A DNA stretch of 64,000 nucleotides from an uncultured Planctomycetaceae bacterium (GTDB taxonomy: Bacteria > Planctomycetota > Planctomycetia > Planctomycetales > Planctomycetaceae). Every line of letters starts with the position of its first letter. Within the stretch, counting starts at the first letter, position 1. The stretch covers positions 192,001 through 256,000 of the forward strand of contig CAWFGE010000019.1 of the NCBI GenBank assembly GCA_963815195.1, given 5' to 3'. Of this stretch, positions 29,957 to 46,581 are shown piece after piece. Under the pieces are notes generated by a model. That model ran no database searches. It was not told where the DNA came from and saw only the letters and a list, made by a program, of their open reading frames with translations. The translations under genes were made by a program, and so were the position numbers.

Positions 29957-30510
29957 CTGAGAAAGCCCATCAAATCGTGCGCTCTCGTGTGAGGCCGGGC
30001 GATGTGGCGATCGATGCCACCGCGGGGAACGGATACGACACCTTGTTCCTCAGCGAAGCCGTGGGAGACGCGGGGCTTGTGTTTGCCTTCGATGTGCAGC
30101 CGGCGGCTCTTGAGCAAACCGCCGCGCGGTTGGAAAATGCCGGCCGAAGCAACGTGCTGCTCGTGCCGCACAATCACGCGGAGTTGGCGAGTCACATCCC
30201 CGCCGAGCACCACGGCCAAATCGCCGCGGTGATGTTCAACCTGGGCTACTTGCCGGGATCCGACAAATCGTTCCACACGAAACCGGAAACCACAGGGTGG
30301 GCCATCCTGGGCGCGTTGCCTTGGCTCCGCGCGGACGGCGTTTTGACCGTGCTCGCCTACACGGGGCATCCCGGTGGGCTGGAGGAAGCCGCCGCCGTGC
30401 ACCAATTGCTGCAAAGCCTTTCTGGAGAGGAATTTACAGTCGAAACTCATGTCCCGGACCGGCCGTCGGCTCCACAACTGTTCGTGGTCGCCCGGCGGCA
30501 TAATCCGTAG
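29944..30510 (+). CDS. mnmM: SAM-dependent methyltransferase, YtqB/MnmM family
   Basis: DATAGNGYDTLFL, AFDVQ, FNLGYLPGSDK and YTGHPGG closely follow the YtqB/MnmM motifs. Confidence 0.8.
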   Translation: MERLTEKAHQIVRSRVRPGDVAIDATAGNGYDTLFLSEAVGDAGLVFAFDVQPAALEQTAARLENAGRSNVLLVPHNHAELASHIPAEHHGQIAAVMFNLGYLPGSDKSFHTKPETTGWAILGALPWLRADGVLTVLAYTGHPGGLEEAAAVHQLLQSLSGEEFTVETHVPDRPSAPQLFVVARRHNP

Positions 30511-30632
30511 CGGATCGAGGATTTTCTTCCGAAAACGATGTTTCTCCGCGGTCGAAATCCTCGGAATTCGTATGATACAATGCATTGACCACGGAAGAAT
30601 TAAAAACTCAATAGTTCCAAATTACGGTAAAA

Positions 30633-30730
30633 AGGACCGAAGGTCCGGGCCTATGTCAGCCCAGGGCAAGCGCAGCGCCGCCCTGGGTTATGGATGATAA
30701 ATGAAACGCAAGCCCAGCGGGGCGGCCCTA
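30633..30730 (+). repeat. REP-like composite repeat, family C (left copy)
   Basis: AGGACCGAAGGTCC..CTATGTCAGCCCAGGGC...GCCCTGGG...GGGGCGGCCCTA; inverted relative to the copies at 30786 and 46504. Confidence 0.8.
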
Positions 30731-30785
30731 GAGGGCACGCGCAGGGGCAGCTTCAATCCCACGCACGCATTACGTATCTTCGGTT

Positions 30786-30846
30786 TAGGACCGCCCCTTT
30801 GGGCCTATTGCATTTTGTTTGTTCCTGGTCCCCAGGGCTGCGCCCT
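30786..30846 (-). repeat. Family C repeat, first part, interrupted by IS110
   Basis: TAGGACCGCCCC...CCCAGGGCTGCGCCCT; continues at 32501. Confidence 0.85.
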
Positions 30847-30860
30847 TATAGGATTTGCTG

Positions 30861-31160
30861 AGGGATGGATCGGCCGCGGGAGAGGGCGGGGGACGCAAGT
30901 CTCTCCCCACGGACTCTTCCGCGCCGGAGCCGATCCAGCGCCGTTTTTTTCCTGTTTTTCCAGCCCCAACTTTGAGAGGATCAAAATCAGGCACGCGTCG
31001 CCCCGCTACGAATCGTGCGCCCCATCGCTTCAACGATTGAGCCCAGACTTTCGAGCGGGACGATGCTCTTGGGAACCAACGAATCACTCCAGATGATGAC
31101 GCCAAAACGTCTCGGACTATAAGGTTTTCGCCCGCTCCCAAGATCGCGTGCCCTTTTTGA
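30861..31160 (+). ncRNA. Predicted IS110 bridge RNA (5' hairpin + target-binding loop + donor-binding loop)
   Basis: Guides TGCGCCC (31016-31022) and AGCCCAG (31040-31046) match the target; CAGATG (31090-31095) and CTATAAG (31117-31123) match the donor junction; each pair sits in an internal loop closed by stems. Ends are approximate. Confidence 0.85.
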
Positions 31161-31192
31161 TTGTGTTTCACTTTAACAGGAGACGATCCCCC

Positions 31193-32474
31193 ATGCACTC
31201 GAATTTGCTCGACCCCAATGCCTGTGTGCTGATCGGCCTCGATTGGGCCGACCGCGAACATGCCGTCTGCCGGCTGCTTCCCGACGGCGGAACCGAACAC
31301 CGGCAACTCGAACACACGCCCGAAGCGATTGCCGACTGGCTCGCCGGCCTGCGGAAGCAATTCCCCGGTCGCCCGATTCGGATCGCGTTGGAGCAAAGCT
31401 GCGGCGCGCTGATGAGCGCTCTGCCGTTTCGCCGACCTGGAACTCGAACTGTATCCCATCAATCCCAAGCAGCTGGCCCGCTATCGGGACGCGATTCATC
31501 CTTCGGGAGCGAAATCCGATCTAGACGATGCGCAGCTCTTGGCCCGCTTTCTGCAAAACCATCAGGAGCAACTCCTCCCGTTCGTGGCGGACGATCCCGA
31601 AACCCGCCGCCTGGCCGAGTTGTCCGAACTTCGCCGCAAGCTGGTCGATGACCGCAAAACCCTTGTGCAGAAGCTCGAAGGCACGCTCAAGCTGTATTTT
31701 CCGCAACTGCTCGAATGGTGTGCCGGGAAGAGTCGCCAACCCCTGTTGCTCGCCGTGCTTCGCCGCTGGCCGAGCTTGGGCGATCTTAAGCGGGCTCATC
31801 CCAAAACGCTTCGCACGTTCCTCGCCGAGCATGGCCTGCGGAACCCCGACCAGCAAACCGAGTGGATCGACAACGTCCGCCCCGCCACCCCGTTGACCGA
31901 GGATGCCAGTTTGATCGAACCCCGCGCGATGTACGCCCAAAGTCTCGGCCGGCAAATCGAGGAACTGAACGAGGCCATTGCCAAATTCGAGAAGCAACTG
32001 GACGAGGCGACCGCCGCGCATCCCGACCACGAACTGTTCCGCTCGCTGCCCGGTGCCGGCGACGTCCTCACGCCGCGACTCATCGTGGCGATGGGCTCCG
32101 ACCGGGACCGCTACCAAGACGCCGGGGACGTGCAATCCAAAAGCGGCATCGCCCCGATCACCAAGCAAAGCGGGAAGACCCGGCTCGTGTTGTCGCGAAT
32201 CGCCTGCCCCAAATTTCTCCGGCAGACATTCCACGAGTTCGCCGACCAGGCCCGCCGCTGGAGCGATTGGTCCCGAGCGTTCTATCAAATGAAACGCGCG
32301 GCCGGCATGAGCCACCACGCCGCGGTCCGCGCCTTGGCCTTCAAATGGATTCGCATCATCTTTCGGATGTGGCAAACCGGCACCCCTTACTCGGAAATGA
32401 AGTACCAGGAACAACTCACAATCAGAAACAGCCCCGTCTGGAATTTATTGGAAACAACAACAGAAACCACCTGA
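31193..32474 (+). CDS. IS110-family DEDD recombinase/transposase; one extra base near 31427
   Basis: RBS AGGAG; IGLDWA, ALEQ, KSDLDDA (DEDD tetrad); SLPGAG and GIAPITKQSGK with the conserved serine. Deleting one T in GTTTCGCC gives a 426-aa ORF. Confidence 0.93.
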
Positions 32475-32500
32475 AACCCACTTGAAAAAACCTCAGATGT

Positions 32501-32532
32501 CTGGGCTGACATAGGGCCGGGCCTTTGGCCCT
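32501..32532 (-). repeat. Family C repeat, second part, after IS110
   Basis: CTGGGCTGACATAGGGCCGGGCCTTTGGCCCT is a near reverse complement of 30633-30664. Confidence 0.85.
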
Positions 32533-32559
32533 CAGAATCCTCTCGTTCATTTGTCGCCC

Positions 32560-33414
32560 ATGAACCCTTTAGCTTCACAACAGAATTCCGTGATCGATCA
32601 GGAACCGCCCTACTCTCCCGCCTGGCATCAAATGTTGGAACGCATGCTGGGAGCGGCGGCGTGCCGGCAGTTGGGGTTTTATTCCATCCCCTCCGATATG
32701 CTGCTCTCGGTGGTGATTCCCATCTACAACGAGGAAAAGACGCTGCGGGAAATCGTCGAGCGGGTGCGGGCGGTGCCGATCCGCAAGGAGATCGTGCTGG
32801 TCGATGATTGCAGCCAGGACAAATCCCGCGAACTGATGCAGCAAATCGCCGCCGATGTCGCCGACCAGGCCGACGAGATGAACCACATCGTCACCGCCTT
32901 TCACGAAGTCAACCGCGGCAAGGGGGCGGCCCTCCGGACGGGCTTTGAACATGTCGGCGGCGATGTGGTGATTATTCAAGACGCCGACTTGGAATACGAT
33001 CCCTCCGAATTTCCGCGGCTGCTTCAGCCCATCATCGAGAACAAAGCCGACGTGGTTTACGGCAGCCGATTTCTGGGCGACCAGCCGCACCGGGTGCTGT
33101 ATTTCTGGCATTACCTGGGCAACAAGGTTTTAACGACGTTGTCCAACTGCTTCACCAATCTGAACCTGACGGACATGGAAACCTGCTACAAAGTTTTCCG
33201 CCGGCAGGTGATCGACGATGTCACGCCCCGGCTCAAGCAGAACCGCTTCGGCTTCGAACCGGAAATCACCGCCCGCATCGCCCGCCGGCGGTTCCGGGTT
33301 TTCGAAATGTCCGTCAGCTATTCCGGGCGGACTTACGAGCAGGGCAAGAAGATCGGCTGGCGGGACGGCGTCAAAGCCCTGTGGTGCATCATCCGCTACG
33401 GCGTTGCGGATTGA
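32560..33414 (+). CDS. Glycosyltransferase family 2 (DPM1-like)
   Basis: [44 protein letters not shown]. Confidence 0.93.
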
Positions 33415-46503: not shown

Positions 46504-46581
46504 AGGACCGCCCCGTTGGGGCTTGTGCATTTTGTTCGTTCCGGTTCCCCAGGGCTGACATAGAGCCGGACCTTCGGTCCT
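46504..46581 (-). repeat. Family C repeat lacking the internal palindrome
   Basis: AGGACCGCCCC...CCCAGGGCTGACATAGAGCCGGACCTTCGGTCCT is colinear with the reconstructed empty IS site. Confidence 0.85.

Follow-up and report, generated by a model that had tools for sequence, protein, structure and literature searches.

Bridge RNA-guided recombinases of the IS110 group

There is demand for bridge recombinases as tools for programmable DNA insertion, and the orthologues in published tests are described as mostly close to IS621. Bridge RNAs have been predicted for 85.7% of IS110-group elements (PMC11208160), and a 2026 survey reports 32,190 bridge RNA loci under 86 models, many of them deviating from IS621 (10.64898/2026.10.21.760802). 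A screen of 72 orthologues is described as centred on a broader IS621-like clade (10.1101/2025.05.14.653916). ISEsa2 is listed in the Durrant tree, and its branch is therefore catalogued at the protein level; the element is grouped there with ISCfr13, ISCps4 and ISCps5 (PMC11208160, Supplementary Table 1). The 13 papers found to name these four elements are genome surveys, as judged by titles and the opening of abstracts. A literature search at this depth found no bench study of the ISEsa2-like branch, no paper joining IS110, Planctomycetota and bridge RNA, and none joining IS110, bridge RNA and three-way junction.

The locus described here lies in a 64,000-nt stretch of DNA from an uncultured Planctomycetaceae bacterium (the window; positions 192,001 to 256,000 of contig CAWFGE010000019.1, assembly GCA_963815195.1). 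With a probability of roughly 0.95, it is an insertion sequence of the IS110 group that works as a bridge recombinase and falls near ISEsa2, in the branch with long enzymes. This reading draws on the observed ends, core, guide matches, covariation, site preference and catalytic residues.

Element ends, copies and core

Comparison of flanks places an IS110-group element with a CT core at 30845-32502 of the window (Table 1). Five copies occur in the 8.87-Mb, 25-contig genome and account for every IS110 match there. The junctions are identical in all five, joining the target CTGCGCC-CT-GGGCT to the donor CAGATGT-CT-TATAG with the CT core at both ends of the same site, and an empty version of this target is present in the same genome. 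The left end measures 346 nt and the right end 26 nt. Long inverted arms around the element (32 nt, 30633-30664 / 32501-32532) belong to a host repeat only, and none of the 25 longest inverted repeats listed runs between the element ends. A short shared core, a specific target and the lack of long terminal inverted repeats are traits of the IS110 family. The long RNA-bearing left end, the short right end and the lack of a 7-17-bp subterminal inverted repeat further point to the IS110 rather than the IS1111 group.

The enzyme is intact in two copies (contigs C18 and C13). The copy on C15 has a late frameshift, and one on C13 carries 1-nt and 301-nt deletions. In this fifth copy (G000:C13:1055031-1056402, G000 being the genome of the window), the 301-bp internal deletion is flanked by two GGGCTC words, each including GGGCT, the word of the right target. 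Plain microhomology is the probable origin of the deletion, and a guide-directed event may also have produced it. No end-to-end circle joint was found in the contigs of four DNA runs, in which rare forms are dropped. Two other genomes of the same genus hold diverged matches to the left end and the right end, respectively (L160, G130:C24; L159, G168:C5). A protein search gave no match at E 1e-60 in these two genomes, and the diverged ends are possibly remnants or non-autonomous derivatives.

Table 1. Positions of the element's features in the window
Feature	Position	Strand	Evidence or remark
Host palindromic repeat, left part (~200-250 bp, two arms)	30629..30844	.	inverted arms, genome-wide arm search
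Left target (LT) CTGCGCC	30838..30844	+	copy junctions; empty site at G000:C12
CT core, left junction	30845..30846	+	5/5 copies
Right donor (RD) TATAG, element left end	30847..30851	+	copy junctions
Predicted -10 box TAGGAT of circle-junction promoter	30849..30854	+	inferred
Long 5' stem-loop, then T-rich linker	30866..30938	+	9-bp basal stem, 3' bulge, two further helices; folds
Two-arm bridge RNA core	30990..31152	+	stem covariation; model R1 157.5 bits
Outer stem GGCACGCG / CGCGTGCC	30990-30997 / 31145-31152		
Arm-1 stem CCCGCT-A-CGAA / TTCG-AGCGGG	31002-31012 / 31050-31059		
Left target guide GTGCGCCCC, matches target positions 2-8	31015..31023	+	covariation across relatives
TGCGCCC, within left target guide region	31016-31022		
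Right target guide AGCCCAG, pairs target positions 8-14 (7/7)	31040..31046	+	covariation across relatives
Target-loop handshake guide AC, complementary to donor positions 6-7 (GT)	31047..31048	+	relatives
Arm-2 stem TCTTGGGA / TCCCAAGA	31067-31074 / 31136-31143		
Left donor guide region	31087..31097	+	CAGATG (31090-31095) matches donor 1-6
Right donor guide CTATAAG, pairs donor positions 8-14 (7/7)	31117..31123	+	guide comparison
Donor-loop handshake guide GT, G complementary to target position 7 (C)	31124..31125	+	relatives
IS110 recombinase gene, frameshifted here	31193..32474	+	copy comparison, domains, aligned proteins, structure model
Predicted -35 box TTGAAA, right end	32482..32487	+	TTG(A/C) in relatives
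Left donor (LD) CAGATGT, element right end	32494..32500	+	copy junctions
CT core, right junction	32501..32502	+	copy comparison
Right target (RT) GGGCT (32503-32507) and terminal hairpin of host repeat	32503..32532	+	copies, repeat search

A closed two-arm RNA scaffold

A preliminary description of this DNA had proposed a bridge RNA in the left end, with an outer stem enclosing two guide-bearing arms, and the stems and guides it named are all present where it placed them. The region 30960-31200 folds as two arms (z -2.37; 1/200 shuffles as good). Single-sequence folding is thus only moderately unusual, and the comparative evidence is much stronger. Folding and modelling of homologous left ends, put forward earlier as a check, recover the two-arm fold with covarying stems. 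In an alignment of 41 sequences with 42 named pairs, 93% of the cells are paired and two-sided changes occur in 28 of the pairs, whereas sliding the partners in the same alignment leaves only 29-42% paired. The covariation score reaches 0.381, and with slid partners it does not exceed 0.106. In this alignment, made from sequence only, pairing in the outer stem of arm 2 is lower, at 79%. The closing stem that ties both arms together has two-sided changes in 4/7 pairs, with 92% of cells paired. The earlier description assigned 30990-30997 to this outer stem; in relatives the stem has about 7 bp, and the base at 30997 forms part of a longer arm-1 stem. Overall, the comparison argues for two arms of the stem-internal loop-hairpin type with conserved, covarying structure.

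The RNA model has five matches in the genome, all at element copies, and the ordered pattern of four guides also occurs five times in the 8.87 Mb, the number of copies. A search of 30500-33000 against Rfam gave six weak matches, all well short of their gathering scores. Just after the donor-arm hairpin, 41/41 aligned RNAs carry a second invariant CTC (31110-31114 region; columns 135-137 of alignment A1). It has no evident DNA partner and is perhaps a protein contact.

Target and donor guides

The order and polarity of the guides were said earlier to be those of IS110 bridge RNAs, and they agree with the description of IS621 (PMC11208158). Relatives were drawn from 157 loci, 156 of which match the protein, 112 of which have a gene start and enough upstream DNA, and 88 of which are non-redundant. 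Six of the 88 lacked anchors and were set aside. Of the 82 left, 63, the window element included, have ends that are unambiguous and share one core at the two junctions. Element ends in relatives were called from donor sequence only. The 63 elements carry 62 distinct targets and one nearly fixed donor, CAGATGTCTTATAG, which is common to 48 of them. A search of seven supplementary files of PMC11208160 did not find the donor words.

Left guides match their own left targets at 5.86/7 positions on average (shuffled 3.36, highest shuffle 3.84), and right guides their own right targets at 4.41/5 (shuffled 1.82, highest shuffle 2.49). Neither value is reached in 5,000 shuffles, nor in 5,000 shuffles within scaffold clusters. 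The register of the left guide varies by one base among members, and the best of three registers was taken for the data and the shuffles alike. A fixed register (n=60) gives 4.25 versus 2.55 for the left guide and 4.37 versus 1.85 for the right, with 0/10,000 shuffles as high. Among 31 disjoint pairs of nearest sisters, the differing right-guide bases fit their own target in 114/126 cases and the sister's in 6, and left guides won 27, lost 2 and tied 1 of 30 sister comparisons. The preliminary description had named guide-target covariation as a check, and target guides do track their flanks, also within clusters and sister pairs. Taken together, these comparisons show that the target guides covary with the target DNA, the left on the bottom strand and the right on the top strand, with one clear exception in the genome G070, discussed below. 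Poor matches occur among the 63: the left guide scores at most 4/7 in five elements and the right guide at most 2/5 in six; 10/63 match one guide poorly.

Departures from the nearly invariant donor are followed by the guide in 14/16 cases. Covariation at the donor is weak, as the donor varies too little for a strong test. The right donor guide of each element also served to call its left end, and agreement at the right donor is therefore partly circular. The left donor guide, flagged earlier as a weak 6-nt match, leaves donor position 7 mismatched and may form a G-U pair at position 8. This weakness is a trait of the branch: position 7 is unmatched in 36/63 elements and matched in 27/63, and position 8 is a pyrimidine in 52/63. 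CTC stands directly, or one base, before AGATG in 61/63 elements. In IS621, position 7 of the left donor is reported to be the most tolerant of mismatches (PMC11208160). A sub-branch (L135, L016, L129, L133, L155, L031, L014) has a CC core, with the right donor guide changed to match. Its named records are Acidobacteriota, and its leaders mostly measure 230-260 nt.

Handshake bases, junction promoter and 5' hairpin

Handshake guides were defined for IS621 as pairing with positions 6-7 of the non-cognate DNA (PMC11208158). In 62/63 elements, donor position 7 is complementary to the base that directly follows the right target guide. For the base that directly follows the right donor guide, the partner is target position 7 in 60/63 and donor position 7 in 3/63. 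The donor-loop value of 60/63 is reached by 0/5,000 free shuffles and by 10/5,000 within the tightest clusters. These counts suggest that handshake guides pair with the non-cognate DNA. In the window element, AC would have both bases paired and GT the first, which corresponds to an insertion-favouring state.

Joining the two ends of the element gives TTGAAA-17-TAGGAT. A TTG(A/C) word lies at most 25 nt upstream of the left donor in 62/63 elements, 14-18 nt before the right donor, and the linear form of the element holds no promoter-like site. A promoter may therefore form across the joined ends. Downstream of it, a basal stem of at least 8 bp is found at the position of the long 5' stem-loop in 38/63 leaders; the corresponding rates are 5.5% among 945 shuffles and 4.9% among 431 coding windows. 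The 41 basal stems of at least 7 bp carry 24 different arm sequences, and the ~73-nt hairpin is absent from some sub-branches. A position-fixed stem count was used here because the hairpin arms misalign and consensus folding of plain alignments recovered only 8 and 12 pairs. The preliminary description implied an RNA beginning at 30981. The 5' hairpin and the junction promoter place the start probably near 30860 instead, and since both lie upstream of the two-arm core, the RNA is probably about 295 nt long.

The functional guide could also be a shorter, processed target-arm RNA, of the seekRNA type or like the TBL-only species of CazIS110-1, with the two-arm RNA and its 5' hairpin acting as a precursor or in excision only. 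Short target-loop RNAs are reported to dominate in ISEc21 (74 nt; PMC11187229) and in CazIS110-1 (~77 nt, 90.4% of reads; 10.1101/2025.10.25.684509), and the target arm of the window element is a self-contained hairpin of ~67 nt. However, the conserved closing stem ties the target arm to the donor arm (92% paired), the donor-loop handshake base follows target position 7 in 60/63 elements, and CazIS110-1 is reported to require the full-length RNA for both excision and integration (10.1101/2025.10.25.684509). A short guide RNA is thus unlikely, if not without appeal, and it is compatible with, rather than opposed to, the bridge recombinase reading.

The recombinase

The recombinase gene of the window copy is broken by a 2-nt deletion after 31415. 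Its enzyme is dead, but in the RNA region this copy does not differ from the intact ones. The length of 426 aa given earlier is short by one residue, since intact copies encode 427 aa; the repaired recombinase that had been proposed for testing is unneeded, the genome holding two intact copies. The enzyme contains the domains PF01548 (3.7e-25) and PF02371 (8.8e-14). Residues D17, E67, D110, D113 and S327 are invariant in 67/67 aligned proteins and line up with the catalytic residues of IS621 and ISCro4. By domains and predicted catalytic residues, the intact copies belong to the IS110 family; the window copy is their frameshifted counterpart. A structure model (pLDDT 88) has its best fold matches in IS621 and ISCro4, at 18-20% identity in structural alignment, and places a small helical variable region at about residues 170-235, between the coiled-coil helices. 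A variable region of this kind is reported to be what makes the longer IS110 enzymes reach 395-455 aa (PMC11187229). The 90% protein cluster of the enzyme has five members, none of them named, and its nearest relatives are mostly Planctomycetota.

The window copy alone carries six substitutions and two small deletions relative to the other full copies, at 31400-32013. These may be real decay or assembly error; run X1 merges all copies into one intact-type contig.

Site choice in a dispersed host repeat

All five copies occupy the same 14-bp position of a dispersed palindromic repeat, and the element sits in the right arm of that repeat. Arms were searched with the repeat's outer hairpin and kept at 5/7 or more matches to the core plus right target, which gave 91 arms, 5 filled and 86 empty. 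Arms matching the guides perfectly are filled in 5/6 cases and imperfect arms in 0/85, and only one empty arm matches target positions 2-14 perfectly. Comparing filled arms (5/5 perfect) with empty arms of the same type (1/39 perfect) gives a Fisher p of 5.5e-6, with arm labels that are rough and repeat copies that are related. The 47 opposite arms mostly share CT-GGGCT and differ at LT 1-4, and none is used. This pattern is what the left guide predicts.

Site choice might additionally require the DNA hairpin of the repeat (CCCAGGGC-TGC-GCCCTGGG), as stem-loop gating has been reported for ISPpu10 (10.64898/2026.03.19.712850). The target lies in an 8-bp DNA hairpin, and 5/5 insertions are in the repeat, while a match to target positions 2-14 outside the repeat, on C13, is empty. 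Such a requirement is nevertheless doubtful: across 54 relatives, target folding is stronger than flank folding by a small margin only (-4.7 versus -3.7 kcal/mol, p=0.074), and many empty arms keep the hairpin and differ from the guides by one mismatch, such that sequence alone explains the pattern. A single empty site outside the repeat is too small a sample to decide on gating.

The repeat family is REPIN- or MITE-like, with another arm at 46552 of the window. A REP/RAYT link was looked for and not found: 0/6 Y1_Tnp genes have a repeat arm within 3 kb. The hairpin at the repeat end resembles Rfam Acido-Lenti-1 weakly (17-18 bits, cut-off 37). A second, commoner repeat of ~150 bp occurs at G000:C12:900451-901108 and on many other contigs, often in tandem at 190-215-bp spacing, and this family adjoins the one empty perfect target.

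A copy at a site unlike the target

In G070, a genome of the same genus, a 95%-identical element with the same four guides sits at CGCAAGC-CT-TATGG (L158, G070:C25:390884-392539). This copy was merged with the window element as a duplicate and stands outside the 63. Its site matches the target guides at 1/7 positions on the left and 0/5 on the right, and the right donor at 4/5, a level found at 0.47% of the CT sites in the window genome. Two perfect repeat sites in G070 are empty. Half-matches to the right donor only are described as making up 29.8% of insertion sites in an IS621 dataset that was analysed anew (10.64898/2026.08.31.748434), and the G070 copy would be a possible natural case of this insertion class. 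A later rearrangement may also have placed it there; no empty version of the site was found in three same-genus genomes. The left flank of the copy matches multi-copy DNA in G130, and it may adjoin another mobile element.

That the protein alone selects its targets, with the guide matches due to chance or left-over flanking DNA, is highly improbable: each match has only 6-7 nt and the G070 copy ignores its target guides, but guides at fixed loop positions in a covarying scaffold that change with their targets between sisters (114 versus 6), across 62 distinct targets among 63 elements of one enzyme family, already contradict it.

Proposed mechanism

The bridge recombinase reading leads to the following scheme, in which transcription, the circle, protein binding and catalysis are modelled on studied elements. 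By analogy with IS621 (PMC11208160; PMC13626964), read-through transcription would lead to a circle closed at CT, formed by excision or by copy-out; the literature disagrees on which of the two applies. The circle would put TTGAAA 17 nt before TAGGAT and drive a transcript from about 30860 that supplies both RNA and mRNA. Its left-end part could then fold into the long 5' hairpin and the closed two-arm RNA. The target arm would pair with CTGCGCC-CT-GGGCT, on the bottom strand on the left and the top strand on the right, and the donor arm with the circle junction. Strand cutting and exchange at the core would fall to a DEDD RuvC domain and Ser327, and the handshake bases would favour insertion, AC pairing with donor 6-7 and G with target 7. 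The programmed site would be one arm of the dispersed host repeat.

A broader proposal concerns the whole ISEsa2-like branch (400-430 aa, with many Planctomycetota and Acidobacteriota). Its members may share a three-domain RNA of ~295 nt, made up of a 5' hairpin of ~73 nt, to which the enlarged variable region perhaps binds, and then a closed three-way junction. Such RNAs would natively read nearly the whole 14-bp target against one fixed donor, and the G070 copy would be a natural half-match insertion using the right donor only. This combination is speculative and, as a whole, rather improbable. If true, the ISEsa2-like branch would provide genome editing with a starting point that is more selective than IS621. 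The element offers a ready-to-test system, with intact copies, exact ends and a defined target and donor. The relatives form a natural library of 62 targets paired with guides on one scaffold, and the repeat family is an in-genome read-out of specificity (5/6 perfect arms filled, 0/85 others). The gain is incremental, as the mechanism is known and tens of thousands of bridge RNAs have already been predicted.

Comparison with known systems

ISPpu10 and ISPpu9 of Pseudomonas putida are reported to enter dispersed palindromic repeats in a comparable way, with a hairpin beside the site. In contrast to these elements, a hairpin requirement is unsupported across the present clade (p=0.074, 54 relatives), the host repeat is longer, and none of six checked genes provides a linked RAYT-like gene. 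ISCro4 / IS622, a close relative of IS621, is described as having the same mechanism and fold as the element reported here (10.1101/2025.05.14.653916; PDB 9t56).

IS621 of E. coli is the best-described point of reference (PMC11208160, PMC11208158, PDB 8wt6-8wt9). As described for IS621, the RNA lies in a long left end, and the guides follow the order left target, right target, left donor, right donor with the same strand polarity. Both have a CT core, a 7+2+5 site, handshake bases, a junction promoter (predicted for the present element) and a DEDD plus Ser active site. Both have a target within a palindromic repeat, and the two enzymes share a fold (E 2.6e-14). The element differs from IS621 in its target and donor, and its enzyme has 427 aa compared with ~326, with a helical variable region of ~70 residues at the coiled-coil tip. 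Its predicted RNA has ~295 nt rather than 177, with a 5' hairpin of ~73 rather than ~33 nt. The outer stem closes both arms, which sets the RNA apart from IS621 as that element is described. The native right target guide pairs 7 bp here and 4 bp in IS621, and 44/63 relatives match 5/5 outside the core. The number of perfectly matching guide bases, ~27, compares with a reported survey median of 25 (10.64898/2026.10.21.760802) and 28 in IS621.

The nearest named element is ISEsa2, with 42% identity across 406 residues of the enzyme. The two elements share a scaffold, since model R1 fits the ISEsa2 left end along its full 167 positions (68 bits, E 7.6e-17); ISEsa2 has other guides and another donor, and its host is enterobacterial. 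The element is thus a further member of a group whose mechanism is already known, from a branch for which the search found genome surveys rather than bench work. To this group it adds modest extras: a closed junction, a long 5' hairpin, a native 7-bp right guide, a pattern of specificity readable within one genome and a possible half-match insertion.
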